Positions 3,043 through 60,530 of a DNA stretch of 64,000 nt are shown here, piece after piece (the stretch's first letter is position 1; each line of letters begins with the position of its first letter). Both the position numbers and the translations under genes were made by a program. The notes beneath the pieces were generated by a model. The model was not told where the DNA came from and searched no databases. It saw only the letters and a list, made by a program, of their open reading frames with translations. Origin of the DNA: a virus; IMG/VR virus record IMGVR_UViG_3300031746_000002, positions 74,901-138,900 of that record. One strand, written 5' to 3'.

Positions 3043-5669
3043 AATGGTTATCTAGAATAACAGCAGTTGCAACTGAAGTTGAAGAGGTAACAAAAGAAGT
3101 ATATAGACGTACGTTTGAAGATATGGCAAAGCGCTACATTGAACTCAATAAAAAAATGGAAGAGTCAGAAGCATTAATAGAACAAGCAATAGAAGAGATC
3201 AATGCAAGACTTGAAATAGCAAAGCTTACTGAAGTTACTGAAAAAGAAGAAAATATACTTAAAGCAATGCTCTATAAATTAGAGGAGCATAAAAAATCTA
3301 TAGATGGTTGGGAATTAAAATTAGCTCAAGCAAAAAAGAAATCACTCAAATCAAAAGACTTCATAGAAGAAATAACCGAAACATTTACTGAAATTAATCC
3401 TGCCTATAAGCAAATGATAGAATTCATTGCTTCAAAACATACAGAATATCCAGAACTAGATGATATTGATACTTATAAAATAACTCTTAAAAAAGAAAAG
3501 AAAGCCGGACTTAAGATAAATGCTGCTTTTGTAGAAAAATTTAAAGCAGCATTGGGTAAGTTCATAAACTGGTTAAAAGATAAATGGGACAGCATAATTG
3601 GAAAGATAGATAAAAAATATGCTGACATTGAAGATGCTATGAAAGAATTAGAAAATGCCCCGATGTTGGTAGTTAAAGAAGCTTCAATAGAAAAAGAAGC
3701 AAAATCAATAACAATTGAAGAATATAAAGCTGGAATAGTTGATGCTGTTGAAAGAGCATTTCCAGGAAAAACTTTTAGTATTGGTGTTTCTAGTATTTTA
3801 ACAGATCAGAATTTTCATACTCCTTTAGAGGCATTAGTTGAAGCTGGAATATGTGCAAAGCCAACAAGCAAATATGATTTTATGGCTATCATTGATGCAG
3901 ACAAAAAAGAAGCAGATGATTTAACGACAGTAATAGCTGATCATGATAATAAAATAGGTTATATAGGAATGGGTGGGGATAAAGTTGTTTTAGAAGAAAC
4001 AGCTTCATTAAAAAAAGAAGCAAGAGATTGGAAATATAAAGTTTACATTCCTGTTAATGCAGATAAATATGAAGACCCAACTGATGAAGGTGCATTAGAA
4101 CTTGCAAAAATAGCAGTCAATGAAATTACAAGAATACTTTCTACTGTTCCTGCTGAAAAAGATGATCTTAAAGATCAGTTAGAAAGTGTTAAGATGGAAT
4201 TTGAAGATGTTGTAGCAGTCGAAGATTTCGATGCAGCTTTAGAAACATTATATGATATGGGAGATAGTGAATCTATTTGGATAGAGACATATGAAAAGAA
4301 AGGTTCATTAAGTAAAGAAGCAGAAGAAAAAACTTTTGAAATTCCAACAGGCAATGCTCAGCTAGTATATAGTATAGATGGCATAGTAGGTGAAGAGTTT
4401 GAAGTTGATAGAGGAGGCACAATGCTTCCTATTGGAAAATATAAAGTTGTTACAAAACCAAAAGTTGATGTAGAACATTCTGGACCCTGGGGAACTTATT
4501 CAACTATCCTTGTTGAAAGAATTGCAGGGAATAGAGTTACATTGAAAAAGAAAGCAGGAGCAGTATGTAAAGAATGCGGCAAAGATATGATGGACCCAAC
4601 AGCAAAATCATGTACTTATCCTAAAATTAAGATTGATGGGGAAATCTATAATAGAGACACAGAATATTTTGATGTAAATGAAAGATGTCATGATTGTAAC
4701 ATAGTAAATAAAAAAGGAAACATACATCATTTTGGCTGCGATATTGAAAGATGTCCAAAATGTAACGGTCAAATTATAAGCTGTGAATGCAAAAAAGAAT
4801 TTCTTATTGGTCCAGATGGACAGGAAAGCAAAGCATCAATGAAAAAAGAAGCAACATCATATACTGATTTCTTAACAAACCGCGGAACTGAAATTAAACA
4901 GGCTATTAAGCAGTTAAATGAAATTCATAAAATATATGATAGTCTTTCTGAAGAAATTCTTGATAAAGCTCATGACAAAGTAGCAGGAATATATGATAAA
5001 AATGTTCCAGATTATATAGAAGATTGGGTTGCTGATGGAGATGCAGACGTTGATAGTATTGCTAGTTTAGCACTTAGTAATCAGGACAATTATGGAACAG
5101 AAAAACAAATGATATTATATGCTATAGAAGATTTTTATAACGTGATTATGAGAGGTAGAAAAGAATCTTCATTGAGAAAGAAAGCAGATAGTTATAATCC
5201 TTATATGTATACCTCTCCAACTGGTCCAGCTACTTCAGATGCTAAAACTAATCATAAGAAATATATGGTTAAATTTAAAGAAGCTGATGGGTCATGGAAA
5301 TTCTCTACAATGGAAGATGATCTTGAAGCAGCTAAGTCACAGGCACAAGAAATATATAATAATGAAAAGAAGAAATCAAAGGTAATTGATACTACTACAA
5401 GCAATGTTATCTTTGTTATAGGTGCTGAAAATAGTGAAACACTTAAACGTTATGCAAGTTTAGATGCTGATATTGATGCAATGGAAAAAAATGAACATAA
5501 AAAACATGTTGAAGGATTTAAAAAAGCAGCATCTTTACAAGCTAACATAGAAAAAGAAGTATATCAATGTGATAATTGTCATATCAGGCTTGGTAGATTT
5601 ATAAAGCAGCTTCCAGACAGTTGCCCACGCTGTGGAAAGCAAGTAAAATTTGACAATGTAATAAGGTAG
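3039..5669 (+). CDS. Modular polyprotein with MKWL leader and LxKxA linkers (putative internal head protein)
   Basis: MKWLSRITA; linkers ASIEKEA, ASLKKEA, GSLSKEA, TLKKKA, ASMKKEA, SSLRKKA; Cys-rich Zn modules. Confidence 0.7.
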   Translation: MKWLSRITAVATEVEEVTKEVYRRTFEDMAKRYIELNKKMEESEALIEQAIEEINARLEIAKLTEVTEKEENILKAMLYKLEEHKKSIDGWELKLAQAKKKSLKSKDFIEEITETFTEINPAYKQMIEFIASKHTEYPELDDIDTYKITLKKEKKAGLKINAAFVEKFKAALGKFINWLKDKWDSIIGKIDKKYADIEDAMKELENAPMLVVKEASIEKEAKSITIEEYKAGIVDAVERAFPGKTFSIGVSSILTDQNFHTPLEALVEAGICAKPTSKYDFMAIIDADKKEADDLTTVIADHDNKIGYIGMGGDKVVLEETASLKKEARDWKYKVYIPVNADKYEDPTDEGALELAKIAVNEITRILSTVPAEKDDLKDQLESVKMEFEDVVAVEDFDAALETLYDMGDSESIWIETYEKKGSLSKEAEEKTFEIPTGNAQLVYSIDGIVGEEFEVDRGGTMLPIGKYKVVTKPKVDVEHSGPWGTYSTILVERIAGNRVTLKKKAGAVCKECGKDMMDPTAKSCTYPKIKIDGEIYNRDTEYFDVNERCHDCNIVNKKGNIHHFGCDIERCPKCNGQIISCECKKEFLIGPDGQESKASMKKEATSYTDFLTNRGTEIKQAIKQLNEIHKIYDSLSEEILDKAHDKVAGIYDKNVPDYIEDWVADGDADVDSIASLALSNQDNYGTEKQMILYAIEDFYNVIMRGRKESSLRKKADSYNPYMYTSPTGPATSDAKTNHKKYMVKFKEADGSWKFSTMEDDLEAAKSQAQEIYNNEKKKSKVIDTTTSNVIFVIGAENSETLKRYASLDADIDAMEKNEHKKHVEGFKKAASLQANIEKEVYQCDNCHIRLGRFIKQLPDSCPRCGKQVKFDNVIR

Positions 5670-5672
5670 GCT

Positions 5673-8602: not shown

Positions 8603-10261
8603 ATGTTAACAAAGCAAGCAATAATAAATGACCTTAAAAAGATTTTGGCTTATTCAACCCAGAAACTTAGTGCTATGTCATTAGATGATATAGAAGAAGA
8701 ATTTGGAAATTTGTATGATACTATAAAATGGTCAAAAAAGAATGTAACTGCTGAACAGCTGAAAACAATAATACTTGATATAAACAAAAGATTCAATGTT
8801 GAAGATATAGAACAAAAACTAGAAGATATATTTGATAAAATTGATAGTGTTATTAGCAGAGCTGCTTCATTAGAAAAGAAAGCAGCTATTGATAACTTGA
8901 TGGAATTGATGGATCGAGACTTTGAAATCACTGATGCAGACATGGTTGAATTAAAAGAAGATGAAATTGAATTCGTATTAAAGCACCCAGCAAAATTTGA
9001 TATGAAAGCAAATGAAATTAAAAGTCTAGAAGATAAGTTAAAGCGGCTTAGGGCATCATTGAAAAAAGAAGCAATACTCAGTGTTGGTACTGAAGTAGAA
9101 ACTCTTGATGGTTCTGGAGTAATAACTAAAGTTAAAGATATGGGATTGAACGATTCTTATTATACTGTAAAATTAGAAAATGGGGAAGAGCATGATTATT
9201 ATCCTGATGCTAAAGAAGTATGGCTTAAAGCTACATTAGAAAAAGAAGCAGGATTAGGAAAGCATATTGCAGAAACATTAGAAGCAGCTGGAATTAATGT
9301 AGCTTTTGAAATGAGTGAGGATGGAATTATAGTTGAAGATGAAAAGGATGCAAAGAAAGTAATGAAAGTTCTTGATGACTCTGGTAGCTTTGGACCCACA
9401 GCATATAATAATGAAACTAAAGAAATTATGATAGGAGAGTATAAAGAAAAGAAATCTTTATTAAAAAAAGAAGCTTCAAAATATACACGTTGGGCATCAA
9501 CTGATAGCCAAGAAGAAGCCATTGAAACTATAGAAGAAACACTTAATCTATTAGGTATTAAACTTGGCGGAGGAACTGCTATAGGTAAATCACCACAAAC
9601 TGTGATTTTAGATATTAAATATCAAGACGGTGCAATAAGTGTTAATGCTGAAGGTGAAGTTAAATTATTCGGTGATGATGTTACTGGCATAATTAATGAA
9701 AAAGATGGCATAGCAGATAAATTAAAAGAAAATGGTATTGAAGTTAAAGAATCAACTGAAGCTAATCCAAACTATGAAATCAAAACAGGTTCTGCTAATG
9801 AGCTTAAAGAAATAGAAGCAAGCATCAGGAAGAACCACCCAAACATTACAGACCTTGAAGTAGGAAGGCAGATGAGGGATATTATAACAGTAGCAAAAGG
9901 GAAAGCTACAGATAAGAAAGTTATTGCAAGATTAACAACAGCAGAAATCAGTAACATGTTTCCAGAATTTGATAAGACAGGAGGGGTATGGCAAGTGGAA
10001 GAAAAAAATGGTAAGAAGACAATCATACGACCTGACATTAAAGCTATTGAAGAAGCAGTAGAAAACAAAGGGCATATCAGAAAGGTTAATGATATAGTCC
10101 TTTATGATGATGGAAGTCCAGATAGCAAAATGTTTGAAGTCCAGATAAAAGAAATCCTTGATGGCGGCAAATACAAGGTTATAGCAATGCAAACAGGTAA
10201 AGAATTCACAGCAGTGGAATCACAGCTCCTAGATGAGTCAAAAATTGAAGAGCTAATGTAA
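8603..10261 (+). CDS. Modular protein with LxKxA linkers
   Basis: MLTKQA, ASLEKKA, ASLKKEA, ATLEKEA, SLLKKEA separate unrelated modules, including SH3-like ones. Confidence 0.7.
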   Translation: MLTKQAIINDLKKILAYSTQKLSAMSLDDIEEEFGNLYDTIKWSKKNVTAEQLKTIILDINKRFNVEDIEQKLEDIFDKIDSVISRAASLEKKAAIDNLMELMDRDFEITDADMVELKEDEIEFVLKHPAKFDMKANEIKSLEDKLKRLRASLKKEAILSVGTEVETLDGSGVITKVKDMGLNDSYYTVKLENGEEHDYYPDAKEVWLKATLEKEAGLGKHIAETLEAAGINVAFEMSEDGIIVEDEKDAKKVMKVLDDSGSFGPTAYNNETKEIMIGEYKEKKSLLKKEASKYTRWASTDSQEEAIETIEETLNLLGIKLGGGTAIGKSPQTVILDIKYQDGAISVNAEGEVKLFGDDVTGIINEKDGIADKLKENGIEVKESTEANPNYEIKTGSANELKEIEASIRKNHPNITDLEVGRQMRDIITVAKGKATDKKVIARLTTAEISNMFPEFDKTGGVWQVEEKNGKKTIIRPDIKAIEEAVENKGHIRKVNDIVLYDDGSPDSKMFEVQIKEILDGGKYKVIAMQTGKEFTAVESQLLDESKIEELM

Positions 10262-11684: not shown

Positions 11685-13616
11685 ATGGCAAAGTTAGAAG
11701 ATTTTAGTGAAGCACAAAAAAAACGTGCTATAGAACGTTTGGAAAAATTAAATCCTTTAAGTCTTAAAAGGCCTTTACATAAGGGTGAAGAAAATATAGC
11801 TTCTAAAGTAGAGGAACAAATATTTAAAAGACAGGCAGCATTGAAAAGAGAAGCTGGAGACTCTTATTCATTTTCAATGGATTCTACAGCAGGTGTTTCA
11901 AGAGTACCCATTCTATTTGTAGACCCACTATTTGACCCAGTCTTGTTGTTATTTCCTACAGGCGATCTTGAACAATTAAATAAACGGTTACGACATTATT
12001 ATATGTATCATTATTTAGTAGGGAATTTAATAGACCTACACAGCGAATTTCCATTGTCTGATCATGTGCTTGAATGTGAAGATGATAGCATAAAGAAATA
12101 TTACAATGATTTCAAAGACAGAATAGGTGCATTAGATATAATGACACAACAGTTAAGAGGTTATCATTTATTGGGAGAAGCAGTACATTATGGGAACTGG
12201 GATAACAATAACTTTGAATGGGAAAGCTTCACACAGTTCCAGCCAGAAGATATAGAATTGATGGATACGTTTGTAAGTCAACCAGTATTCTTCTTGAAAG
12301 TAAAGAAAGACTCTGAAATAGGAAAGATAGTAAACAACACTTCAGATATGGTAGCAAGAGCAATCACTGAATTACTTCCAGATAAATTAGTATCAGCAGC
12401 AAGGACAGGAAGAAGGGTGCATCTCGATTCAAGCCGAGTTTTGTACTTTGCTAATAAGCCAGAAGGAAGTATGAAGCGTGGACATTCATTGCTTAAAAGA
12501 TGTTTGAAAGATCTAGTGCATGAAGATAGGTTAAGGTTACTTCAACAGAGTTTTATTGAAAGACATTCAAAGCCAATTAAGATATTTAAAGTGGGTTCAA
12601 AAGAACTTGGTTGGATCCCATCAGACAGGCATATGGTGAAACTGCAGAAGTTACTTGCGCAAGCAGCAAATGACCCTGATTTCAATTTAATATATCACCC
12701 ATTCTTAGAGGTTGATTATGTAGGGACAAAAGAAAAGATCACAAACCTCAGTGAAGAATTCGATGATGTACAGAAAAAGATTATGGTAGGATTATTTGCT
12801 AATGATGCATTAGTGCATGGGGAAGCCACTACTTACGCATCTAGTACTGTTCAGCTTAAAATCATAATGTATAGATACTTAGCACAGAGGGCGAAGCTGG
12901 AGAACCTTTGGAAGTATAGAGTGTATCTACCATTAGCAATGAAGAGGGGATTTGTAAGAAGGAGTAAAGCAGAGATAGATCACAATCTACGAATTAATAG
13001 TAAGCTTGATAAATATATAAAGGTTAAAGGACAGGATAGATTAATTGAAGCAGAATTTGTAACAGGTTCTCAAGGACAGAGACTTAATGGTGATGATGGT
13101 AAACCTTTATTAAGGATAGGGAATTCTGTTTATAGAGGCAGTGAATATGATAAATATATAATCCCAGAATATATTTGGCAGAAGAGGAACTTAGTAGACA
13201 GTTCATCTGAAAGGGACATGTTAAGACAACTTAGAGATAATAGTGAAATTCCATTTGAGATGATTGCAGATGCAATGGGTTGGGATATGAAGCATATTGA
13301 AGACATGCTTAAGAAAGAACAGTCAACAGTATTTGATCCAAAATACCGTGCAATAGTAGATGAAAAAACAAAAGATGATGATGCTTATAAAGAGCAGATA
13401 CTTTTAAAGAAGACTCCAGAAGAGGCATTGAAAGAATTAGAAAGACAAAAGCAGAAAGAGAAAGCACCAGTGGTTGAACAAGAAACAGCAGAACAACCTG
13501 AATTAAAAATTCCTGCTAAAGAAGAGACCCCAGAATTACCGCCAGAAGAGGGCGAAAAGAAAGAACCAAAGAAACCCCGAACACCAGTAGGTGGCGAGGA
13601 AACGATAAAGGAATAA
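11685..13616 (+). CDS. Portal protein
   Basis: Position after TerL, 643 aa; LIDLHSEFP, LLGEAV..G.W and GHSLL.RCLK.L...D.LR portal-like motifs; acidic/Pro tail; AALKREA near the N-terminus. Confidence 0.8.
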   Translation: MAKLEDFSEAQKKRAIERLEKLNPLSLKRPLHKGEENIASKVEEQIFKRQAALKREAGDSYSFSMDSTAGVSRVPILFVDPLFDPVLLLFPTGDLEQLNKRLRHYYMYHYLVGNLIDLHSEFPLSDHVLECEDDSIKKYYNDFKDRIGALDIMTQQLRGYHLLGEAVHYGNWDNNNFEWESFTQFQPEDIELMDTFVSQPVFFLKVKKDSEIGKIVNNTSDMVARAITELLPDKLVSAARTGRRVHLDSSRVLYFANKPEGSMKRGHSLLKRCLKDLVHEDRLRLLQQSFIERHSKPIKIFKVGSKELGWIPSDRHMVKLQKLLAQAANDPDFNLIYHPFLEVDYVGTKEKITNLSEEFDDVQKKIMVGLFANDALVHGEATTYASSTVQLKIIMYRYLAQRAKLENLWKYRVYLPLAMKRGFVRRSKAEIDHNLRINSKLDKYIKVKGQDRLIEAEFVTGSQGQRLNGDDGKPLLRIGNSVYRGSEYDKYIIPEYIWQKRNLVDSSSERDMLRQLRDNSEIPFEMIADAMGWDMKHIEDMLKKEQSTVFDPKYRAIVDEKTKDDDAYKEQILLKKTPEEALKELERQKQKEKAPVVEQETAEQPELKIPAKEETPELPPEEGEKKEPKKPRTPVGGEETIKE

Positions 13617-45564: not shown

Positions 45565-45573
45565 GGAGCTAAC

Positions 45574-45801: not shown

Positions 45802-45811
45802 GGAGAATAAC

Positions 45812-46255: not shown

Positions 46256-46263
46256 GGTATATA

Positions 46264-47625: not shown

Positions 47626-47626
47626 T

Positions 47627-48208: not shown

Positions 48209-48219
48209 AGGAGATTAAC

Positions 48220-48777
48220 ATGAAATGGTTAAAGATAAATGCAGATGTTACACCTTCACAAGTCTTTGATGAACTAACAGCAGACATGATTGAGGGAATA
48301 ATTAAGTATCATGAAAGATGGTACAAAAAAGAAGAACCAATTAAAATGGAAACAGTTGATAAATATATATTAGGTTATATGGGTGATATAAAATCTGCTG
48401 TAGTTGAAGGGTTAAAAAAGAAGGGAATTAAAATTGAGGGAGGTTTGAATATGAATTGGAATAAAAGAGAAGCACAGGAAAAAACAGTGTATTCAAAAAT
48501 AATTGATATATTTGGAAGGGAAGCAAAAGTTATAGCTTTTTATTATCCTGATGAGTTGAAAGATATGACTCGTATTCATGCACGTATTGATTGCAGAATA
48601 GATACACCCAAAGAACAATATGCATCACAGACTATAGTTCTATATACTATCCCTGTAATAATAATTACAAAAGATACTGAAGTAAGGAAGAATTATTTTG
48701 AAAAAGGATATAAAGTTTTTGAAATTATTGAACAGGCTGAAAAATACATAACAGATTTTGCAGAAGGACTTGAATAA
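48220..48777 (+). CDS. WL-leader protein, two modules
   Basis: MKWLKINA; internal SD + MNWNKREA at 48451. Confidence 0.7.
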   Translation: MKWLKINADVTPSQVFDELTADMIEGIIKYHERWYKKEEPIKMETVDKYILGYMGDIKSAVVEGLKKKGIKIEGGLNMNWNKREAQEKTVYSKIIDIFGREAKVIAFYYPDELKDMTRIHARIDCRIDTPKEQYASQTIVLYTIPVIIITKDTEVRKNYFEKGYKVFEIIEQAEKYITDFAEGLE

Positions 48778-51700: not shown

Positions 51701-54700
51701 TAAACATATGAAAAAAAAGAAATCATGGTTAAGTAAAAAAGCATTAGATAGAACAGAATGGGATTTAATAAATGAAGCAGTTGCTGATGTTATTGCTAAT
51801 TTTAAAAAAATAACAAAAATAGAACCGTGGAAAACTATAGATCCTAAAGGACAATTTTATCAGGAGGTAGTTAATAAAACATATCCTACAATTATAGAGT
51901 ATTTAAAGAAAAATTTTCCTGATATAATTGAAGACGGTAAAATTAAATATGAAGAATTTTTATATAGGATGGATGAGGAATTAATGTCATATGCAGACCA
52001 AGCAGTTGAAATGTATAAACAAGAACATGGAATATATCCTGAACCGGCTTTATTAAGAAAACAAGCATTTATCCCAGGTAAAGAAGCATTAGTAGTTCTT
52101 GAAGATTTTAACAAAGACCAGAAACAAATATACCCTGATGCTGCTGATACAGGAATAGTAACAAAGGATAAAGAAGGAACATATCAAGAAGTAGATGCCA
52201 AAATACAGAAAGCATTAGATGAGCTACTTGAAATATATAAAGCAGATATTAGTGAATATACTGGTGGAAAGCACTGGGAAATATTTATTCCTGTTGAAGA
52301 AGATGGAAAATATCTTGCAGGATATTATGTATCAGTTAGTAAAAATACAGACAAAGCAAGAGGTATAGAGTTCTTTAGCATCGATATCATGCATGAAAGA
52401 AGGGAAAACGTTAATGTTAATGATTTCTATAAAAAGACAGCTTGGTTAAAAAAAGCAGCTAATGATTATTCAAAAGCTGAGAAAAGTAAAAATAAAATAA
52501 TAGAACAATTACAGCAAAGAGCAAACACTAAAGGTATTCGTGAAAACTGGGGAGACAAAGAACTTAGACAATACCAAGATTGGTTGGAAACTTTAAATTT
52601 AACATATGCAGAAAAATCTAGTTTATATGTTGCACTATCACAAGCACTCAGTTCTATGACTGAAACAAAAGCTTCATTAAAACATAAAGCAGATGATGAA
52701 CTTTCAGCAGAAGATAAAACTGTAATCGCTAAGGGAAAAGAAATACTTGAGAAAATGAAAAAAGAAAATGTTGATATACTTGATATCGATGCTTATGAAC
52801 CTACAGGAGATATAATGATGCTAGTAGGTGAGGGCATTGCTGATGCTATAAATTCGCATGGTAAAAACTTCTTTGAATGGGATATTAAAATGGGAAAAAT
52901 TAATATTCCTGATGAAGTTAGAACTAAAATCAATGATGATAAATTAAATCGAATATATCAAGATGAAGCGCAATTAAATGTAAAGACATTGGGCGATGAA
53001 ATTGTAGATGGATATTCTTGGGCAGAAGATTGGTATCAAGAAGGCAGGATGGGTGGTTGGTTCTGTATTGAAGCTGATTTCAATGAATTGGTTAGTGATA
53101 TTAATAGTTATCAAATATTTGTAGATGATTTAGAGAAAGCTGTAGAAGATAAAGATATTACAACAGTACAAAAATATTTAGATAAGGATATTAAAGAAGC
53201 AATAATACTTTCAGAGAAGATTTCAAAGCAGATTAAAGCTATTGAAGATAACTTAACAGAAATTAATAGTGATGTAGAAGCAATGTTAAAAGGTTTTAAA
53301 GAAGAAATGGAAAGTGTTAAATTCTGGAAAGAGTATTATGATGAAGAAACAAAATCTTCATTAAAGAAAGAAGCTGCTGCAATGGATGATGCAAAAGAAG
53401 CTGTTGATGAAATTTTAGAAGGAATGAAAAGTATTCCTTTACATCAAGGTACTTGTGATGTAACAGAGATAATGAATTTTCATGAAATAGCAGAAGGAGC
53501 AGGATTGACAGAAGAAGAGTATGATAATTTAATTGATTATGCTCAAGGAAAACTTAATAAAAAAATTAAAAAAATATATTATTCTTCATTAAATAAATCT
53601 GCTGAGAAAGGTGAATATTATCTTAGTAAGGGTTATGATATATACGAAGATGATGATGGTAATACAATTTATTTTGATTCGCATGAAGATGCAAAACGAT
53701 ATATGGCTGATAATGAATTGATAGGGTGGTCAATTACTAGAGAAGGATTTCCTTCTGAAAGTTCATTAAATAAAAAAGCGAAGAAAGTGCATATGATAAA
53801 GGACCTGAATGTTGAATGCACAGTTGTTGATGAGCTTGGCAATGGCAAAAAGAAACAATGTGAATACATAGACCCGATCACAAAGAAATTAAGAAAGACT
53901 TGGTTTCCAAGTGAAATGATTTCTTATATTGAAATCGATGAGAATAAACCGCCAATTGAAAAGGCTTCATTGGAGAAAAAAGCAGATAAACTTCAAATAG
54001 GCGATAAGGTATTTGTTAAACCTGGAAATTATAAAGTAATTCAATATAGTACTACAGATGAACCAGTTTATTCAAATGAAATTCGTAATATTGAAAAAGA
54101 AGAAATTGGATTTATCAAGGAAATTTTGCTAAATGATTTAATCAATATAGAACTTAAAGAAGATGGAACTATCATTGAATCTGCAGAAGGCTTATTTGTT
54201 AAGGCATCTAAGCATCAGCTAGATTATTTATATGAAGGAGACAAGGTTGTACTACTTAAAAATATTAAAAATAAAAAGAAAGATGATGTTGGTGAAATAG
54301 AAGATGTTCATGAAGGATCTGAACCTGATTATGATATATACAATGTAAAATTTCCTGATGGAACAATTTTAGAAGATTTAGAAATCAGCAAAGACTTTAA
54401 AGATGCTTCTGGAAAACAAGCTTCATTGAAAAAAGAAGCAGCACTCACATCAAACGAAAAATCAAGTATTTTAACTTTAGCAGATGCAGCAGAAAAAGCA
54501 GGTCTTATTGCTATGGAAGAAATAGTCGAATTTGTACTTGGTGGATTATCTGAAGAAACTAAAGAAAAGATAGCAGACCATGAATATAAAATGATAAGCG
54601 ATTTAATTAAAGGAATTCCTGCTAAAAGTGAATTAATAATTGAAGGCGCAGATATATCTCAGCTTTATGAGGAATCATATCTGAAACATATAAAAGAACT

Positions 54701-55091
54701 TACAGATAAAGGAATGCCAGAAGATGAAGCAATTATAGAAGCACTCGAAGTAGTATTTCCAGAATTACTTGAACAAGCAAGAAAACAAAATTCTGAAAAG
54801 AGTGTAATTGAACATGTAAGAAAAAAGCTTCACCCAAAAGCAGAATTGAATATGGAAGAGATTTCAAAGCAGTTAGGTATTCCTATAGAAAATATAATTA
54901 CTATAAATATACCAAACTGTGAAGAATATATTTTAAAAGAACATGGGCTTGATGTATTGAATATGCTTACTTTTAGACTTCATGCTTCTTTGGATGAAAC
55001 TATAAAACAATTTAATATGGTTAAAGAGGAAGCAGAAACAGTAGAAGCATTGTATGACAAATACGAACATTTTTATTCAAAGGAGAAATAA
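48789..55091 (+). CDS. 2100-aa modular polyprotein (about 20 or more modules)
   Basis: About 20 (S/W)LxKxA-type linkers separate SH3/KOW-like, HMG-box-like and other small modules. Confidence 0.75.
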   Translation: MNFNLIGLIKQASNAIFANKGKEEALKEWAQDKFVKETKEGVTYDFDWAEIKKEGQSIEMTDKQIDNVIEKLKKVSSLKVEAGKQIVKIYYKDHVEMRGTGITKVEIDGEQETADRFFESLLENISADLPEFSDEDVHIYVGNLTLWTYDIMFDAQPEVDLDKYEKWLDENYKIEFIKETETSLKQSWLETEEAVGPDTEYAAIRFPEEVSQGLVFRLPKDFAYNKKDPQAGHEVTVQLSYPETAEILRLNDDGTINIKIKYNGDIVKNLNPKELKASLEIEASAYTDFVKSYYKEHEGAKPGDKKTMQEIGKAWKAWKIKHPKKKAWLSNKAYGKFQIGDQVIDDNNDIGYVSEVNTNNTYDIEYTKLDNLKRIETVPEDELKKVESRLTKADYEEFPTYFTGNDLHLTLSAESVPDKINDIEQTIWDSDNQQATDEWDREAEKVLDLAGKEYWEEAFKNDPRVEEIVSFGIELMKRYNIPYPKRKGSFNKEAATKSIDEMSKDEAKELWKSYGGDFDKCVKKAGSWAKSPESYCAALAKKATGKTPKELAACPECGLNIEASAYTDFVSKYFKSHPGAKFKDIAKAWRAGKKPSKKEAPKEKAPEKEEKKAWLTKADVDDIPSAITRDTLHLDADKEKARKREEFGFLPIYEIGDKVEDMYSKPGRKGKILEFSSEGTVLIKWDNGEKSYQDMGDIKKASLHLDADDELKIGDKVEWKEDVSQLHDIADMQEYCGKVLSIKPGRGMSPIVEVKLEDSGEIVDVERNFLHKVKASLNKKAYHPSWEDYKYSKDPKEVELYNKIKEQATKAMDDIVKILQAKNLVVKRVSFKKVIVEQKDLFDGFLTIEVHDMASKISDEFDENAEPMISMDSIVVPKGETDRRKWKGDVASAMSISEFEKKLDEQLEYVQSVTKESPMHRWMEKASLNKEAKIKKLPNGKYRVMAETGRNMGTYDTEKEAKERLQQIEMFKHMKKKKSWLSKKALDRTEWDLINEAVADVIANFKKITKIEPWKTIDPKGQFYQEVVNKTYPTIIEYLKKNFPDIIEDGKIKYEEFLYRMDEELMSYADQAVEMYKQEHGIYPEPALLRKQAFIPGKEALVVLEDFNKDQKQIYPDAADTGIVTKDKEGTYQEVDAKIQKALDELLEIYKADISEYTGGKHWEIFIPVEEDGKYLAGYYVSVSKNTDKARGIEFFSIDIMHERRENVNVNDFYKKTAWLKKAANDYSKAEKSKNKIIEQLQQRANTKGIRENWGDKELRQYQDWLETLNLTYAEKSSLYVALSQALSSMTETKASLKHKADDELSAEDKTVIAKGKEILEKMKKENVDILDIDAYEPTGDIMMLVGEGIADAINSHGKNFFEWDIKMGKINIPDEVRTKINDDKLNRIYQDEAQLNVKTLGDEIVDGYSWAEDWYQEGRMGGWFCIEADFNELVSDINSYQIFVDDLEKAVEDKDITTVQKYLDKDIKEAIILSEKISKQIKAIEDNLTEINSDVEAMLKGFKEEMESVKFWKEYYDEETKSSLKKEAAAMDDAKEAVDEILEGMKSIPLHQGTCDVTEIMNFHEIAEGAGLTEEEYDNLIDYAQGKLNKKIKKIYYSSLNKSAEKGEYYLSKGYDIYEDDDGNTIYFDSHEDAKRYMADNELIGWSITREGFPSESSLNKKAKKVHMIKDLNVECTVVDELGNGKKKQCEYIDPITKKLRKTWFPSEMISYIEIDENKPPIEKASLEKKADKLQIGDKVFVKPGNYKVIQYSTTDEPVYSNEIRNIEKEEIGFIKEILLNDLINIELKEDGTIIESAEGLFVKASKHQLDYLYEGDKVVLLKNIKNKKKDDVGEIEDVHEGSEPDYDIYNVKFPDGTILEDLEISKDFKDASGKQASLKKEAALTSNEKSSILTLADAAEKAGLIAMEEIVEFVLGGLSEETKEKIADHEYKMISDLIKGIPAKSELIIEGADISQLYEESYLKHIKELTDKGMPEDEAIIEALEVVFPELLEQARKQNSEKSVIEHVRKKLHPKAELNMEEISKQLGIPIENIITINIPNCEEYILKEHGLDVLNMLTFRLHASLDETIKQFNMVKEEAETVEALYDKYEHFYSKEK

Positions 55092-55093
55092 TT

Positions 55094-55339
55094 ATGAAAT
55101 GGTTAACTGCAAAAGATGAAGAGAACAAAGAACTTGCAATGGGAATTAAAGTAGAAAAAGAACATGAAGCAACTATTAAACAGATTATTGACGATGTAGA
55201 AAATGATAAGGTACAACCGATAGAAAAGTATCAGGAGCTAATTGCAAAGGACCATCTTAAAGAATCAGATATCTATTACACTGAACTTAACAAGATGGAA
55301 AAGAAATTAGAAAAGAAAAAAGAAGAGGTAGAGGAATAA
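55094..55339 (+). CDS. WL-leader protein, DUF5661-like
   Basis: MKWLTA; ELAMGIKVEKEH...IAKDHLKE...YYTEL.KME. Confidence 0.65.
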   Translation: MKWLTAKDEENKELAMGIKVEKEHEATIKQIIDDVENDKVQPIEKYQELIAKDHLKESDIYYTELNKMEKKLEKKKEEVEE

Positions 55340-55995
55340 TGGCAGTCATAAGGAAGTACGTTATTTCATCTGTAATTAAAGCATTGAAATATGATCCTGA
55401 GAGTCATAATCTTGAAATAGAATTTAAATCAGGTGGGAAATACAGATATAGTAATGTTGAAGAAGAAGAATTTACTACATTCGCAAAAGCAGTTTCAAAA
55501 GGGAAATATTTTAATAAGAACATTAAGAACGGTTATGAATATGAAAGAATTTCAAGTCTAATTCATGGAGGTAATACAATGAACTGGTTAACAAGGAAAG
55601 CAAAAGCAGAAGATGAAGTATACTTCTTAGTAAGTACTAGTTGTGATGTAGTAGAAGATAGTTTTGAAAAGGGTGAAATAAGTGATTGGCGAAATACGAT
55701 GTTTGAAAAAGAAAATAAAAAGTTTGATACAATCGATCATCTAGTCGAATATCTTTATAGCAACTATGGACTTTCAAAAGATAAATCAGAGTATACAGCA
55801 GATGATGGTCAGCTCACAACTAGTATTATGCAGGATGAAGACGGAAACTCAATTGGTGAAGTTGATAATAAGCTTAAACAATGGAAAGAAGGCAAAGCAA
55901 GATTGTGGAATGCTTATTATATAATGCACATAGAAATTGTTAAAACAAATGAAATAACTACTGAAGAACTACGCAAACTCGGTTTCACAGGATAA
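55339..55995 (+). CDS. KTSC domain + WL-leader module
   Basis: SSVI..LKYD....LEIEFKSGG.YRY.NV...SKGKYFN..IK; internal SD + MNWLTRKA at 55579. Confidence 0.8.
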   Translation: MAVIRKYVISSVIKALKYDPESHNLEIEFKSGGKYRYSNVEEEEFTTFAKAVSKGKYFNKNIKNGYEYERISSLIHGGNTMNWLTRKAKAEDEVYFLVSTSCDVVEDSFEKGEISDWRNTMFEKENKKFDTIDHLVEYLYSNYGLSKDKSEYTADDGQLTTSIMQDEDGNSIGEVDNKLKQWKEGKARLWNAYYIMHIEIVKTNEITTEELRKLGFTG

Positions 55996-56677: not shown

Positions 56678-56680
56678 TTA

Positions 56681-56720: not shown

Positions 56721-56870
56721 AGCAAAGGAGACTTAGTTGAATTCACCACATGCAACATGCGCATTATTACAGTTTAAAGAAGGATTAAGAACTATAAAAA
56801 CGCATATTGATTCGCGTCCAAAGATAAAAGTAATAGCTTCAAATAAACAAAAGAAGAACGGTAAGAAATA

Positions 56871-59800
56871 ATGGAAAACAATTTTATAACTTGTCAGAAC
56901 TGCCAAAAGCAGGTTGATTTGAATATTACACCAGAGATAGCAATGGGTGCAACAAGATGTCCTCATTGTAATTCTGTGTTTGATAATAATGGAAGTATAA
57001 TAAAGATAGCAACACAACCTTCATTTAAAGAGGGTGATAGAGTAATGGACATTAGGGACAGTTCAATTGGAACTGTTAAAAATATCCAACTACCATTTGA
57101 ATTCGGTTCAGCACAATACAATGTGAAGTTTGATAATGAAATGAAAAATGATGTTGATGAAAAATATCTTCGCTTAATTAAAGGAGGACAAGTGAATAGT
57201 TGGTTATCTAAAAAGATAGAAAGTAAGCTGCAGGGAATTGGCGTTATAGCAAAAAGAGTTCCACCATTGAGAGAATGGAGAGAACGCAAACATGATTTCA
57301 TAACTGTATATCACCCTGACAGATATATGACATTCAAAGAATTTGTTACTAATAACTGGGATATATATGGTTTTGATTTTGATATAGATAAACAAGTAAT
57401 ATGGCCGCTTAAAGGAACTTCAACAGAAAAATTGGTTAAAGATTTAAAAGAAGATGGTATAGATACTAAAGTAATGACAATGAGTTATGAAGACATGTTC
57501 GGTGATTATTATAGATTATTTAAAATACCAGTACCACAAAGAGCTTCTTTGCCAACAATTGCTGTAGAAAAAGCATTAGAGAAAAAATTTATTCAAGTGC
57601 TTGATGATGGGACAGAAGCAGATTTTCCTATTGATAATATTGCTGATAAGTTTAGACCGCTTGTTGATGAAATGAAAATTGGTGAATTAATGAGTCTTGG
57701 ACCATTGAAGATTAAAAGAATTGCAGAAACAAAAGCTTTATTAAAGAAAGAAGCAGTAGATGTAAAAACACTTGAGGGCAGAAAATTTAAAGACAGAAAT
57801 TCTGGTGAAATACTTACATTCCAGTATGAGCACAGACATCCAATAACCAGGGATATAGTAAATATAGTATTTGAAGATAAAGATGGAGTAGAAGTCGCCC
57901 TGCGGTCATGGGATGAGGTGGATATACAACCCTTAGAGACCAAAAAGGGTTCATTAAATAAACAATCAGATTTAGGAGGAATATCTAATTCAGTATTAGT
58001 AGTTATAGAGGATAATAAAGAATTTAGTCCTGAAGGGATAGAACATTGGGCAAAAGAAGAAAATATAAACATAGATGAATTAAATAGAACATTGGCATAT
58101 CTTTTAGAGACACAAATGATTAATAAAAAAGATAACATATATTCAATAACAGCGCAGGGTAAACAATATTTAAAAGATACTGGATTTATAAAAAATGTAG
58201 CTTCATTAGAAAGAAAAGCAGCTTTAGAGAACCTTGCAGTAGTATCTCGAAAATTCTCAGGACTTCTTGTAGGCATAGCACAATATGCTCTTACAAATTT
58301 ATTGAATGAAGAAGACCCACAGATAAAAACTGCAAGTGCTAGTTATAATAGCCAAGTTTCATTGATGGATATTCATACAGATGTAAACAAAATAACGCCA
58401 GTAATTTCAAGCGTGACAGCTACTTATAAAAATATGATTATAGAAGCTGCTTTAAATTATGGCGATTTCACTATAAGCTGTTATGCACCTACCCGCGATG
58501 AAGCTCATGAATGGATAGAAAAGCTTGAAACAAAAATGCTTAATGAAAATCAATACAGAGGCAAATGCTTATATGCAGAAAATGGAAACATATCATTTCA
58601 TCAAGTACCTGAAGTTGTATGGGATGATATAATTCTTGATGCAAATATTAAGAGTGATATTCGAATGAACACAATTGCATTTCTTGGGGATAAGAGACTA
58701 GCTGATACTGGTGTATTTAAAAGAGGCATTGTAATGTATGGACAGCCAGGAACAGGTAAAACATCAGTAGTGAAAGCTATCTTCAATGAATTAAATGAAA
58801 AAGGTGTTAGCAGAGTATATGTTACATCAGAGTCATTCAGACAGATGAGTGCTAGTAGTTTATTTAGTCTATTACCTTATTTAGGAAAAGCGGTAATAGC
58901 TTTTGAAGATATAGATATGATAGGGACATCAAGAGATATTATGTCAATGTCTGGAAATGGAATATTGGGTGATTTATTAACTAACCTTGATGGAATGAGA
59001 AATTATAATGAGCAAATAGTTATTCTAGCTTCAACGAATAAGATGTCAATGCTTGATGAAGCTCTGGCAGACAGACCTGGAAGATTTGATAGAAAAGTTG
59101 AGATAACACTTCCAACAAAAGAAAATCTGACAGCACTATATAAAAAGTTTTCAGGATTAACAGTTTCTAGCGATATCATTAATCTATCTGAAGGCTTTAC
59201 AGGATCGCATGTAGTTGAAACTGTAAACACTGCAAAAATATTAGCAGCACATGATAATAAGAAAATAGATGATTGTATGATAGAAGCTTGCAACATCATT
59301 AGGGATAATTTCTTCGTTGGACAAAAACAATCACAAATCAAAACTGCAGCTTTACATAAAATTGGAATAGTAGAAAGAGGCGAACAATATAAATCATTAA
59401 ATGATGCTGATAAAATCGATCCTATCTTTATACCAGGCAATACAGAAATATGGTACGCAAAAAGTATTAGCACTGCAAACAGAATGTATGATGAAGAAAA
59501 AATGCCATTCTCAAAAGAAACATTTAAAGACACACATATGTTATTAGGGAAAGTTTCATCTACAGATTTAGATGAAATATTCCAGAAGATGCAAGGTGAG
59601 TATTGGTCTCCAAGAGGTGAAGCATTTACAATGATAGGTGATAGTGAAACAGACCATACATCAATGAGTGTTGGTGATGCTATAAAAATTGGAGATGTAA
59701 TTAGTATAGTTGCACCAGAAGGATTTAAACCATTAGCTGAATTAAAAAAAGAAACGAAATGGTTGGGATTTAAATTTAATCCTGGAGATAAAGTTGAATT

Positions 59801-60530
59801 AATCAGCGGGGATTATCAAGGAAAAGCAGGTACAGTTATAAGATATGAAGATGATTATGTATTAGTTAGGACAGAAGAAAAAGAAATAAAATGTCAGCCA
59901 GAAACATTGAAAAAATTATCTTCATTAAATAAACAAGCAAAAGTTACCATTGAAGAAACAGTAGTTGATTTAGACCCATTAGAAGCAAGGATATATAATG
60001 ATTTAATACTTAAAAGCAAAGTATCTCCAAAGAAAGCACTTGAGATAATGTGGAATACTCTTGAAGGAGACTATACACAACTCAGCCCAGCACTATTAAA
60101 ATATGTTCAAGATCATTTAGAAAAGAAAAGTTGGTTAAACAAAAAAGCAGCAGATCGAAAAGAACTTAGCGATACTGTATATGATGATAGTGATTTTGAT
60201 GGGGATTTCAAAATTAATGAAGATAATTATGTAATTGAAATTTTAGAAAAATTATTTGATAAAGACTATTATAAAGAAATAGAAGCTACTGAAAATATAC
60301 CAACTAAAGAAATGCAATCAATAATAGATGACATTGTAGATTATTATGAAGAAATTTCAGATATTGTAACTGATTTTGATAACTGGGAAGATAATATAAT
60401 AGATGGATATGTTGAAAGTAGTTCTTTACGAGACTCAGCTGATAATGAGATTTATGATATTCAAAAGAGTATTCTCCCATTAGAGAAGAAATTAGTAACT
60501 ATGATTTATGATTTCGTAGAAAAGAAATAA
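56871..60530 (+). CDS. Modular polyprotein containing AAA+ ATPase, YodL-like and SH3/KOW modules
   Basis: GQPGTGKT, AFEDID, STN, DRPGRFD; HTSMSVGD; linkers LLKKEA, GSLNKQS, ASLERKA, SSLNKQA, SWLNKKA. Confidence 0.8.
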   Translation: MENNFITCQNCQKQVDLNITPEIAMGATRCPHCNSVFDNNGSIIKIATQPSFKEGDRVMDIRDSSIGTVKNIQLPFEFGSAQYNVKFDNEMKNDVDEKYLRLIKGGQVNSWLSKKIESKLQGIGVIAKRVPPLREWRERKHDFITVYHPDRYMTFKEFVTNNWDIYGFDFDIDKQVIWPLKGTSTEKLVKDLKEDGIDTKVMTMSYEDMFGDYYRLFKIPVPQRASLPTIAVEKALEKKFIQVLDDGTEADFPIDNIADKFRPLVDEMKIGELMSLGPLKIKRIAETKALLKKEAVDVKTLEGRKFKDRNSGEILTFQYEHRHPITRDIVNIVFEDKDGVEVALRSWDEVDIQPLETKKGSLNKQSDLGGISNSVLVVIEDNKEFSPEGIEHWAKEENINIDELNRTLAYLLETQMINKKDNIYSITAQGKQYLKDTGFIKNVASLERKAALENLAVVSRKFSGLLVGIAQYALTNLLNEEDPQIKTASASYNSQVSLMDIHTDVNKITPVISSVTATYKNMIIEAALNYGDFTISCYAPTRDEAHEWIEKLETKMLNENQYRGKCLYAENGNISFHQVPEVVWDDIILDANIKSDIRMNTIAFLGDKRLADTGVFKRGIVMYGQPGTGKTSVVKAIFNELNEKGVSRVYVTSESFRQMSASSLFSLLPYLGKAVIAFEDIDMIGTSRDIMSMSGNGILGDLLTNLDGMRNYNEQIVILASTNKMSMLDEALADRPGRFDRKVEITLPTKENLTALYKKFSGLTVSSDIINLSEGFTGSHVVETVNTAKILAAHDNKKIDDCMIEACNIIRDNFFVGQKQSQIKTAALHKIGIVERGEQYKSLNDADKIDPIFIPGNTEIWYAKSISTANRMYDEEKMPFSKETFKDTHMLLGKVSSTDLDEIFQKMQGEYWSPRGEAFTMIGDSETDHTSMSVGDAIKIGDVISIVAPEGFKPLAELKKETKWLGFKFNPGDKVELISGDYQGKAGTVIRYEDDYVLVRTEEKEIKCQPETLKKLSSLNKQAKVTIEETVVDLDPLEARIYNDLILKSKVSPKKALEIMWNTLEGDYTQLSPALLKYVQDHLEKKSWLNKKAADRKELSDTVYDDSDFDGDFKINEDNYVIEILEKLFDKDYYKEIEATENIPTKEMQSIIDDIVDYYEEISDIVTDFDNWEDNIIDGYVESSSLRDSADNEIYDIQKSILPLEKKLVTMIYDFVEKK

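Follow-up and report, generated by a model that had tools for sequence, protein, structure and literature searches.

A short linker repeated through the head-region polyproteins of this large, uncultured phage is probably both a predicted cut site of the head protease and a joint for module exchange. The analysis centred on a window of 64,000 nucleotides (positions 74,901 to 138,900 of IMG/VR record IMGVR_UViG_3300031746_000002). The codon conservation of the linkers was confirmed as genuine, and by alignment with relatives module events are shown to be located at linkers. A dual role is favoured with moderate confidence: one element would serve as a protease signal in the protein and as an in-frame DNA repeat for module exchange, the codon conservation arising through turnover. 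An earlier sequence-only reading had interpreted the linkers as evidence of cassette shuffling, and as a whole that interpretation is partly supported.

Linker-bearing genes

Good linkers are confined to head-region genes. The genes concerned, with the portal gene for context, are as follows.

3039..5669 (+), 876-aa polyprotein with an N-terminal M-K-W-L tag, five Ser-type linkers and one Thr-type linker
8603..10261 (+), linker-bearing protein of 552 aa, encoded between the terminase and portal genes
11685..13616 (+), portal protein (phrog_16240, E 2.5e-41)
38800..41253 (+), protein of 817 aa; assemblin-type prohead protease domain near the N-terminus (about aa 45-260)
41970..42923 (+), major capsid protein, in which aa 26-30 (L-Q-R-Q-A) form a linker-core motif
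45178..48777 (+), six clustered small genes, each starting M-x-W-L, some with internal linkers
48789..55091 (+), polyprotein of 2100 aa with about 20 modules unrelated to one another
55339..55995 (+), 218-aa ORF of two fused modules; a Shine-Dalgarno, an ATG and a W-L tag lie in frame at 55579
56871..60530 (+), 1219-aa polyprotein with AAA ATPase, wHTH and KOW modules

Only one paralogous pair was found among 57 module pieces, and a Pfam search of the 2100-aa chain found none of the typical polyvalent-protein domains. The phage encodes a RecA (291 bits). Several HNH or homing-type endonuclease genes are also present (TerL insert, 16295-16939 and 62123-62779).

Linker inventory and codon conservation

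The linkers are of Ser, Trp, Leu and Thr type.

3681..3701 (+), Ser-type, GCT TCA ATA
4002..4022 (+), Ser-type, GCT TCA TTA
4302..4322 (+), Ser-type, GGT TCA TTA
4536..4556 (+), Thr-type, ACA TTG; followed by a Zn-ribbon module common to other phages' polyproteins
4833..4853 (+), Ser-type, GCA TCA ATG
5166..5186 (+), Ser-type, TCT TCA TTG
8864..8884 (+), Ser-type, GCT TCA TTA
9053..9073 (+), Ser-type, GCA TCA TTG
9230..9250 (+), Thr-type, ACA TTA
9455..9475 (+), Leu-type, TCT TTA TTA
45385..45405 (+), Ser-type, GCA TCA TTA
46013..46033 (+), Ser-type, exception AGT TTA
47257..47280 (+), internal Trp-type; a gene fusion in which Shine-Dalgarno and ATG survive in frame
47627..47653 (+), M-N-W-L-N-I-K-A-K, an N-terminal tag at which variable cassette 1 has its left breakpoint
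48038..48058 (+), internal Leu-type, GTA TTA TTA
49014..49034 (+), Ser-type; L001 homology stops at its final base
49332..49370 (+), Ser-type site, then Trp-type linker TGG CTC; L001 homology restarts here
49617..49637 (+), Ser-type, exception TCG TTA
49767..49787 (+), Trp-type, TGG TTA
50250..50270 (+), Ser-type, GGT TCA TTT
50625..50642 (+), short Trp-type, TGG TTA
50676..50699 (+), Thr-type, of the rare L-H-L-D-A-D subtype; repeat on the left side of cassette 3
50889..50909 (+), Ser-type, L-H-L-D-A-D subtype; right repeat of cassette 3
51111..51131 (+), Ser-type, GCA TCA TTA
51564..51584 (+), Ser-type; the 45-aa module behind it occurs as a separate gene in many other contigs
51723..51743 (+), Trp-type (TGG); orthologous G001 linker is Ser TCG
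52047..52067 (+), Leu-type (TTA); orthologous G001 linker is Ser TCA
52440..52457 (+), short Trp-type, TGG TTA
52671..52691 (+), Ser-type, GCT TCA TTA
53355..53375 (+), Ser-type; following module just 75.9% identical to L001
53583..53603 (+), Ser-type; left edge of variable cassette 4
53760..53780 (+), Ser-type; L001 homology restarts here
53964..53984 (+), Ser-type, GCT TCA TTG
54420..54440 (+), Ser-type, GCT TCA TTG
55582..55602 (+), Trp-type, behind an in-frame ATG
57735..57755 (+), Leu-type, GCT TTA TTA
57948..57968 (+), Ser-type, GGT TCA TTA
58200..58220 (+), Ser-type, GCT TCA TTA
59919..59939 (+), Ser-type, TCT TCA TTA
60129..60149 (+), Trp-type, TGG TTA

The sequence-only reading had counted TCA in 23 of 25 Ser-type linkers. 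Checking all 25 sites in the sequence bore this out at every coordinate: TCA is the second codon at all 23 TCA starts, and the exceptions are TCG (49620) and AGT (46016). TCA makes up 34.2% of 2553 Ser codons genome-wide, 31.8% (81/255) in the linker-bearing genes minus their linkers, and 43% (48/111) of Ser codons preceding a TTR Leu; the respective binomial p-values are 2.6e-9, 5e-10 and 4.4e-7. Elsewhere in the genome, 62 of 162 Ser-Leu dipeptides use TCA. The excess thus holds in the comparison with codon and codon-pair usage that had been suggested, and the possibility raised with the shuffling proposal, that TCA-TTR is the generic Ser-Leu pair, does not apply (43% at most). The next residue had been described as Leu, encoded by TTA or TTG and never CTT. 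All 22 Leu codons are TTR (TTA 15, TTG 7, CTN 0; p = 1.2e-5 to 6e-5), but the remaining three sites carry Ile, Met and Phe. TCT, AGT and Leu-CTT are, as claimed, common in these genes outside the linkers (23.9%, 30.6% and 26.4%), and Trp-type sites are nearly all TGG TTA (15/16, p = 3.5e-4; the single exception, at 49350, is TGG CTC).

Sharing of synonymous codons among the 25 sites is raised at position 0 (p<0.001), +1 (0.019), +4 (0.004) and +5 (0.018) and not at -1 (0.16) or in the flanks (0.56-0.69); the conserved DNA core therefore spans about 18 nt, beyond the Ser codon alone. The Ala codon preceding Ser is variable (GCT 7, GCA 7). Neighbouring linkers are slightly more similar than other pairs (66.5% vs 63.4%, p = 0.011).

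If the sites had been picked by their DNA, the bias would be circular, and seven looser linker-like Ser-Leu sites left off the earlier list do carry other Ser codons (AGT at 5457; TCT at 5532, 9455, 54987, 57546 and 60423; TCG at 46082). A search by peptide alone, blind to codons (Ser, L/I/M/F/V, two unconstrained residues, E/K/Q/D, A/S), nevertheless found TCA at 22/26 Ser matches within linker-bearing genes vs 7/15 elsewhere (Fisher p = 0.015). A stricter pattern gave 13/13 in the close relative L001, and the bias recurs in the distant relative G001. These codon-blind counts come close to refuting chance or ascertainment, which is hardly credible as an explanation.

Another explanation is simple inertia, under which a few ancestral linkers would have had their TCN box frozen by selection on the peptide, a change from TCN to AGY needing two steps, with the third base not yet randomised and with recombination taking place at linkers but leaving their DNA unshaped. 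Box retention (24/25 Ser codons) accounts for part of the signal. The randomised Ala codon at -1 and the non-Ser codons at position 0 (Leu TTA 4/4, Thr ACA 2/2), each one base from TCA, also fit, as does the retention of the linker Ser as an amino acid in distant lineages, whatever its codon. The TCA excess, however, persists inside the TCN box (23/24 vs 57% expected, p = 2.6e-5), and the excess sharing at +1, +4 and +5, with none in the flanks, likewise argues against inertia alone, which is judged unlikely.

Module replacement in a close relative

L001 matches the window at 96.4-99.5% identity in five colinear blocks. Between the blocks lie three replacements by non-homologous sequence and one module of 190 bp.

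47654..48043 (+), variable cassette 1; L001 has 280 unrelated bases instead
49035..49344 (+), variable cassette 2; L001 has 265 unrelated bases instead
50706..50895 (+), variable cassette 3, a 190-bp module missing in L001
53616..53757 (+), variable cassette 4; one module here vs two unrelated modules (387 bases) in L001

For the eight L001 breakpoints the distances to the linker core are 3, 0, 0, 0, 6, 0, 12 and 5 nt; a share of 9.7% of the region is that near to one (P ~8e-9 for 8/8). This close-relative evidence comes from L001 only; run X2 has the same four junctions and may be from the same population. The 190-bp module is flanked by the only two L-H-L-D-A-D linkers, in place of which L001 has a single hybrid copy. 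The internal linker at 48038 corresponds in L001 to a gene start with Shine-Dalgarno, ATG and W-L tag. The Ser-type linkers unique to L001 carry TCA in 3/3 cases.

Point differences from L001 number 289 over ~16.4 kb, or ~0.3 per 18-nt linker; the 8 breakpoints, spread over 40 linkers, come to 0.2 each. A linker thus undergoes module events about as often as point changes, which suggests that most linkers are recent products of linker-by-linker recombination. The ends of allelic-divergence patches between the window and L001 do not coincide precisely with linkers; segmentation of the divergence by linkers beats random boundaries (p = 0.018), but boundaries shifted by 100-200 nt fit better, a point against the dual-role explanation.

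In the dual-role explanation the ~18-21 bp in-frame repeat is the place of module insertion, deletion, replacement, fusion and splitting, a location that the comparison with relatives shows. The events would be homologous or short-homology crossovers between linkers, aided by the phage RecA or by host recombination, and any such crossover should preserve the reading frame. Turnover of this kind would best account for the conserved codons TCA-TTR...AAA-GAA/AAA-GCA, and a module would continue to move only as long as the linkers on both sides of it retain the common DNA form. The earlier claim that the linker is a recombination joint agrees with the breakpoints. DNA identity of the linkers may be what mediates the exchange, but selection for domain integrity alone could also leave the surviving breakpoints at module borders.

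A dedicated site-specific system, in which a phage nuclease or recombinase recognises linker DNA and exchanges cassettes in integron fashion, would suit the short, sharply bounded core and the endonuclease genes of the phage. Against it, no tyrosine or serine recombinase or integrase was found in 138.9 kb of the record (estimated 68% complete), the linker DNA has no attC-like inverted repeat or hairpin, and no link was found between the phage nucleases and the linker. Such a system is regarded as quite improbable, and the 'integron-like' array of the sequence-only reading stands as an analogy only.

Distant lineages

As had been anticipated for relatives, module gain, loss and replacement occur at linkers and module order is permuted. 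In G001, whose capsid protein is about 49-50% identical, homologous modules occur in inverted order, in a different protein or as a gene of their own. Two unrelated polyproteins also contain the Zn-ribbon module (4539-4835), at 63-68% identity and directly behind their own linker.

G001 linkers use TCA in 8 of 9 cases and TCG in one, against a TCA background of 21.8% (p = 3.7e-5); within the TCN box about 34% would be expected, a further point against inertia. Orthologous modules of G001 are 35-37% identical in protein to those of the window, so at this distance and that of the capsid proteins synonymous sites should be saturated, which again disfavours inertia. Two linkers orthologous in G001 are each one base apart (TGG/TCG and TTA/TCA). 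The stricter codon-blind pattern gave TCA in 2/2 matches in L057 and 5/5 in L058. In L063, L086/L087, L066 and L075 the same Ala-Ser-Leu/Ile peptide has Ser encoded by TCT or TCG, and TCA is thus not universal; this counts against the dual-role explanation, as do the unfixed Ala codon before Ser and the seven looser sites with other Ser codons.

The recurrence of a linker-specific bias in a lineage with different codon usage would also be expected if the TCA-TTR core acted in translation or RNA, for example by pausing translation between domains, by supplying an out-of-frame stop or as a site of nuclease cutting or processing, and was selected without recombination; TCA-TTA-A and TCA-TTG-A do give a stop codon in a shifted frame. 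TCA is, however, the commonest Ser codon here (34%) and a minor one in G001 (22%), and so neither consistently 'fast' nor 'slow'. Both phages lack tRNA-Ser and tRNA-Leu(TAA), the linkers have no added RNA structure (mean MFE -2.28 vs -2.14 in controls), lineages with the same peptide freely use TCT or CTN, and TCT-TTA and AGT-TTA are common away from linkers. Codon-level selection of this kind is considered distinctly unlikely.

Prohead protease and the linker peptide

The linker peptide (small-Ser/Trp-Leu-x-Lys-Glu/Lys-Ala) is most likely the cut and targeting signal of the assemblin-type prohead protease. In 22 of the 23 relatives whose capsid-protein N-terminus is present in the alignment, the linker core (L/M/F/V, x, R/K, x, A) is found near aa 25-35 of that protein. 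ORFs starting M-x-W-L/I number 9 of 200, every one in the head region. Two internal Trp sites retain an in-frame Shine-Dalgarno and ATG.

The protease domain matches phrog_18299 (E 1.5e-17) and phage genes annotated as prohead protease. Its AlphaFold model (pLDDT 78.5) has T4 gp21 as best fold (5jbl; probability 0.99-1.0, TM 0.54-0.60, with Foldseek E-values above 0.001), and herpesvirus proteases are the next-best matches. H97, S148 and H174, one Ser and two His, are invariant across 19 homologues.

In the dual-role explanation the protease would recognise the peptide (small residue, Ser/Trp/Leu, Leu, x, Lys/Arg, Glu/Lys/Gln, Ala) and cut it, probably after the Ala, and the N-terminal M-x-W-L..K-A tag probably also steers cargo into the prohead. 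The polyproteins would then be strings of unrelated small head-cargo modules, freed within the capsid.

Comparison with known systems

Integrons are one-directional arrays of unrelated units with a repeated site where units are gained or lost, and by analogy the present arrays resemble them. They differ in that no integrase and no attC-like hairpin was found here and in that the units are fused in translation, whereas those of integrons are promoterless genes. Herpesvirus assemblins, animal-virus enzymes that cut scaffold proteins and not cargo arrays, generally cut between Ala and Ser. The protease fold of assemblin is of the Ser-His-His kind, and the PrV enzyme, once mature, terminates at Ala225 (PMC4498786).

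The internal proteins of T4, which carry a capsid-targeting sequence and are processed by gp21, are unrelated small cargo directed into the prohead core by a short conserved N-terminal signal, the one thing they have in common (PMC3012670). The nine ORFs with M-x-W-L..K-A and the gp21-like protease fold appear analogous. Unlike in T4, the signal is here also internal to long chains, up to about 20 times per protein, and the likely cut falls at Ala or Ser, whereas gp21 sites have Glu there. In the giant phages SPN3US (gp245) and phiKZ a short motif marks where a single head protease cuts, in many head and ejection proteins, and one protein may hold several such sites (PMC10052503). Of the 14 sites mapped there, 13 serve to remove N-terminal propeptides, and Glu is the last residue of the motif; the available text of that paper describes no module arrays or DNA-level conservation (PMC10052503).

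Polyvalent proteins, found in phages and conjugative elements, combine many unrelated domains in one phage polypeptide and are thought to be delivered to the host; their proteolytic release and recombinational variation were discussed by Iyer et al. 2017, who proposed built-in metallopeptidase domains for processing and in whose main text the word 'linker' does not occur (PMC5512222). Here, by contrast, the common linker appears to match the head protease's own site in the capsid protein. In the gp38 adhesins of T-even phages short conserved glycine-rich motifs separate readily interchanged segments, which are loops of one folded domain with the motifs as structural core (PMC3157838); here, the units are modules distinct from and unrelated to one another, and the motif is probably a site of cleavage.

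In the PeSL cassettes of T4-type phages, indels and replacements that distinguish two close phages are bounded by a short repeated functional DNA motif, and inter-motif recombination is the proposed cause (Arbiol et al. 2010; PMC2839356). The 190-bp module between two similar linkers fits such a picture of insertion and excision. PeSL, as that account presents them, are intergenic promoter-terminator units that move whole genes, whereas the motif in this phage is coding, in frame, and appears to move modules within one ORF.

Genome features

The window covers bases 74901-138900 of a virus record that is 138.9 kb long, with an estimated completeness of 68% and a G+C content of about 31%; 189 of its 200 ORFs lie on one strand, and the source runs holding this phage are sediment metagenomes. 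Linker-bearing genes surround the terminase, portal, protease and capsid genes of the window.

Head-region and linker-bearing genes (window coordinates)
3039-5669, linker-bearing gene
5673-8591, large terminase with HNH insert
8603-10261, linker-bearing gene
11685-13616, portal
38800-41253, 817-aa protein with the prohead protease as N-terminal domain
41970-42923, major capsid protein
45178-48777, cluster of small linker-bearing genes
48789-55091, 2100-aa linker-bearing ORF
55339-55995, linker-bearing gene
56871-60530, linker-bearing gene, 1219-aa chain

The HNH endonuclease segment of the large terminase (about residues 290-430, PHROG) could represent an intein or else a homing-type domain that was inserted. 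The head region is flanked by two ORFs, 16295-16939 and 62123-62779, each with matches to 'head closure' and 'endonuclease' PHROGs (phrog_218, phrog_15427); they are possibly paralogues of a nuclease-like kind. Genes for an NAD-dependent DNA ligase and for a LigD 3'-phosphoesterase-domain protein lie at 18708-20522 and 60810-62126, the LigD-type protein sitting immediately after the last polyprotein. The phage encodes a full-length RecA outside the window, at G000:C1:65259-66044 of its record (PF00154, 291 bits).

Module changes at linkers

Comparison with the sole near relative of the 2100-aa protein (86% identity across 76% of the length) demonstrated directly that gain, loss and replacement of modules, like their fusion and splitting, take place at the linker, a short in-frame motif classed as Ser-, Trp-, Leu- or Thr-type by its residue at position 0 and usually followed by Leu at +1. 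In the contig of this relative, L001 (16,989 bp), five blocks match window 43620-60751 at 96.4-99.5% identity, with four differences between them.

Differences between the window and L001 (window coordinates)
47654-48043, module replacement; 280 unrelated bases in L001
49035-49344, module replacement; 265 unrelated bases in L001
50706-50895, module of 190 bp in the window only; absent from L001
53616-53757, module replacement; 387 bases in L001, coding for two other modules

Measured on the junction sequences, the distances between the eight breakpoints and a linker core are 3, 0, 0, 0, 6, 0, 12 and 5 nt. The expectation that module breakpoints in relatives fall at the linker was thus borne out in this one close relative by all eight, each within 12 nt; the share of the region that close to any of the 40 linker cores is 9.7% (P about 8e-9). 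The 190-bp module is flanked by the only two L-H-L-D-A-D linkers, and L001 carries a single hybrid copy, as expected after crossing over between a pair of linkers. The internal Leu-type linker at 48038 of the window corresponds in L001 to a gene start, with Shine-Dalgarno sequence, ATG and M-N-W-L tag; one module is thus fused in the window and free-standing in L001. An in-frame Shine-Dalgarno sequence and ATG are still present at two internal Trp sites of the window. The linkers found only in L001 carry TCA (3/3) or TGG TTA (2/2).

Contigs of metagenome run X2 contained all four window/L001 junctions again, maybe from the same population, and were not counted as independent. Contigs of runs X3-X5 were short pieces only, with joints of 21-24 letters on one side and many loose ends, and count neither for nor against exchange at linkers. 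Some contigs in three runs (X2-X4) matched nothing but window 46984-47017 (about 33 nt), and their sequence differed to either side of it; other DNA thus shares this short word.

Identity per module between the window and L001 ranged from 75.9% to 100%. Divergence steps were rejected as a second test of crossover points, being imprecise at linkers: a piecewise divergence model with boundaries at linkers performed better than random boundaries (p = 0.018) and worse than one with its boundaries moved by 100-200 nt. Linkers therefore delimit only the non-homologous events, and ordinary allelic exchange between homologous modules runs past them.

Codon composition of the linker

The linker coordinates of the sequence-only reading were all correct when the sequence was read again, and its claim that the linker is conserved as DNA was upheld for this phage. 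The Ser codon is TCA at 23 of 25 linkers (p 5e-10 to 4e-7 across backgrounds), compared with 34.2% in the genome and 31.8% in the same genes minus linkers. The suspicion that TCA-TTR (TTR being TTA or TTG) is simply the generic Ser-Leu codon pair was ruled out, as TCA makes up 38% of 162 other Ser-Leu pairs and 43% of Ser codons before a TTR Leu. The linker Leu codon is TTR in 22/22 cases (p about 1e-5), and the Trp-type linkers are, as had been noted, nearly all TGG TTA (15/16). Synonymous codons are shared above expectation at linker positions 0, +1, +4 and +5 in a resampling test, which gave no excess at position -1 or in the flanks; the conserved DNA core of the linker is about 18 nt. The non-Ser variants at position 0 are TTA (4/4) and ACA (2/2), each a single base off TCA, and neighbouring linkers are slightly more similar than others (p = 0.011).

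A codon-blind peptide pattern found TCA in 22 of 26 Ser matches within linker genes and in 7 of 15 elsewhere; since it shows the same excess, the bias was not created by the choice of sites. Counter-evidence comes from seven looser linker-like sites with TCT, AGT or TCG for Ser, and from the Ala codon preceding Ser, which is split equally between GCT and GCA. Chance or ascertainment is an extremely improbable source of the bias.

Three candidate causes of the codon choice were rejected. Phage tRNAs for TCA or TTA were sought, and the record of this phage has only Leu-CAG, Gln and Pro, that of the distant relative G001 none. A hairpin formed by the partly complementary first and last linker codons gave no energy signal, with the two complementary tetramer pairs in only 5 and 7 of 25 sites. 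G+C content failed because the AT-rich lineages L086/L087 and L072-L076 are without fixed TCA.

Degenerate non-TCA linker-like sites (5457, 5532, 54987 and 60423) cluster within the final 25-45 residues of the three long polyproteins, as though each chain closed with a short, older tail piece or two. Along the 2100-aa gene (49617-54440) the codon before position 0 is mostly A-ending from 49620 to 51726 and T-ending at each of the eight linkers between 52050 and 54423. Local conversion, or array halves that differ in origin, might account for this switch; by hand estimate the runs are not clearly significant.

Distant relatives and module repertoire

Relatives of the capsid protein number 121, with identities of about 43-57%, and 24 of their loci were examined; a scan of viral contigs with this one protein as query found no relative. 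The record of one distant relative, G001 (110 kb, 28% G+C), was read whole. There, homologues of window modules follow one another in inverted order inside one polyprotein, belong to a different protein or form a free gene. At position 0, two orthologous linkers are one base away from their window counterparts (TGG in the window against TCG, and TTA against TCA). Although G001 prefers TCT among Ser codons (35.7%, with TCA at only 21.8%), its nine clear linkers comprise 8 TCA and 1 TCG, each after a T-ending codon (p = 3.7e-5). Inertia after common descent, by which linkers would simply retain an inherited spelling, is rather unlikely.

With a stricter codon-blind pattern, TCA was found in 2/2 and 5/5 linkers of loci L057 and L058; it was at background level in L063 (0/3), L086 (2/6), L087 (0/3), L066 (0/1) and L075 (0/1). 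Conservation of the linker as DNA, beyond the need of the product, is found in the window phage and G001 and is absent from L063 and L086/L087. Distant lineages retain the Ser before Leu as an amino acid regardless of codon, so that in cargo linkers it has some value for the protein itself. A translational or RNA role of the linker codons has a low probability, below that of inertia.

The 57 module pieces of the window include one paralogous pair, so the arrays consist of unrelated units. Pfam and PHROGs gave no families for most modules: the 2100-aa chain has about 20 modules and zero Pfam families at E <= 0.01, and the 1219-aa chain has AAA, wHTH and KOW domains (Pfam). A Zn-ribbon module at 4539-4835 has 63-68% identity to modules in the polyproteins of two other phages, where it stands directly after a linker with different neighbours. 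This Zn-ribbon-like, four-Cys/His-rich module is shared with proteins P0124 and P0125 (loci L086 and L087), whose phage contigs are unrelated in other respects. Linker 51564 is followed by a very widespread small domain, a 53-aa module (51567-51725) matched in 54 other metagenome contigs (L002-L055). Most of these have it as a separate gene, about 45 codons long and beginning with a Met of its own; a few have it at the head of a longer protein or within one.

Predicted protease site and capsid targeting

The protease domain matches the PHROG 'head maturation protease' (E 1.5e-17), and its model (pLDDT 78.5) suggests an assemblin fold of the T4 gp21/herpesvirus type. The three best PDB matches of the model are T4 gp21 chains (5jbl) and most matches listed after them are herpesvirus proteases, with probabilities up to 1.0, TM to target of 0.54-0.60 and no match at E <= 0.001; a PDB search with the protease sequence gave nothing meaningful. 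The candidate catalytic residues H97, S148 and H174 are invariant in 19 homologues. Assemblins have a Ser-His-His triad, and mature PrV assemblin terminates in Ala (PMC4498786). A literature search for a consensus of herpesvirus cut sites gave no result.

The motif L/M/F/V-x-R/K-x-A, preceded by a variable residue, occurs at about residues 25-35 in 22 of the 23 capsid proteins with an N-terminus in the alignment. This is the part of the chain where trimming of capsid proteins commonly takes place. As they carry the linker core motif there, the head protease probably reads Leu..Lys.Ala, with a predicted cut at Ala. M-x-W-L/I stands at the start of 9 of the 200 ORFs, none of them outside the head region; in most, ..K-A follows. 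This putative tag follows the T4-type pattern of a short conserved peptide on unrelated small proteins, ending in a predicted protease site. An internal variant with Asn replacing Leu, M-N-W-N-K-R-E-A, occurs in two neighbouring genes at 47876-47899 and 48451-48474.

Proposed origin and maintenance of the linker

The earlier proposal that modules are swapped by recombination through the linker holds for the events themselves; that recombination between linker DNA causes them we infer from the sharp homology breaks, the hybrid repeat bounding one module, the phage's own RecA and the event rate. Module events per linker are about as frequent as point changes, with 8 breakpoints in 40 linkers compared with 289 differences in about 16.4 kb. 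With turnover this high, recombination would have produced most linkers recently, and continued movement would be limited to modules whose linkers match, so that the DNA spelling would be held constant in lineages with active arrays and drift elsewhere. Such turnover would explain why the position-0 variants TTA and ACA are one base from TCA and why neighbouring linkers are slightly more alike. That linker recombination holds the spelling constant in this way is the favoured explanation, with somewhat better than even support.

In the 138.9-kb record, estimated 68% complete, neither a tyrosine recombinase integrase (PF00589) nor a serine recombinase (PF00239) was matched; a dedicated site-specific enzyme is very unlikely. 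Attempts to find attC-type imperfect inverted repeats at the linkers were negative, linker folding being no better than in controls (-2.28 vs -2.14 kcal/mol).

Beyond turnover through linker recombination, a broader model is put forward tentatively and is rather less probable. Dozens of unrelated mini-protein cassettes would form a shared pool, mobile between genomes, genes, and fused and free forms by general recombination via one in-frame DNA word of about 18 bp that encodes the predicted head-protease cut site. Its spelling would be kept by cassette-level drive, and each new combination would be automatically in frame, packaged and cut, an analogue of the integron at the level of protein domains. 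If linker-based exchange and cutting are real, one short sequence serves a phage that ships many small proteins along with its DNA in three ways: it keeps new module combinations in frame, brings them into the capsid and releases each piece. This would explain how cargo sets, likely of anti-defence tools, can turn over as fast as point mutation. The linker motif offers a handle for finding cargo modules in uncultured phages and a natural template for capsids that are to carry several foreign proteins.

Comparison with known systems

The likening of the array to an integron is an analogy based on module gain and loss at a repeated site; it is not an integron, having neither an integrase in the record nor attC-like structure. 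A literature search of main texts returned no description of a protease-site linker doubling as the DNA-level recombination joint of a domain array. The M-x-W-L/I tag on head-region ORFs is likened to the capsid-targeting sequence that T4 uses together with gp21; the T4 internal proteins are described as having only that sequence in common (PMC3012670). Among the closest systems are also the giant-phage head proteases, with multi-site cutting (PMC10052503), and the polyvalent proteins of Iyer et al. 2017 (PMC5512222). Motif-bounded shuffling is known from the PeSL cassettes (PMC2839356) and the gp38 glycine-rich motifs (PMC3157838) of T4-type phages. Phage mosaicism has long been ascribed to short homologous 'linkers' at the borders of modules, and the window linkers would provide a concrete case of this within reading frames. 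They have in common with the PeSL and gp38 type a repeated motif that bounds indels and replacements between close relatives.
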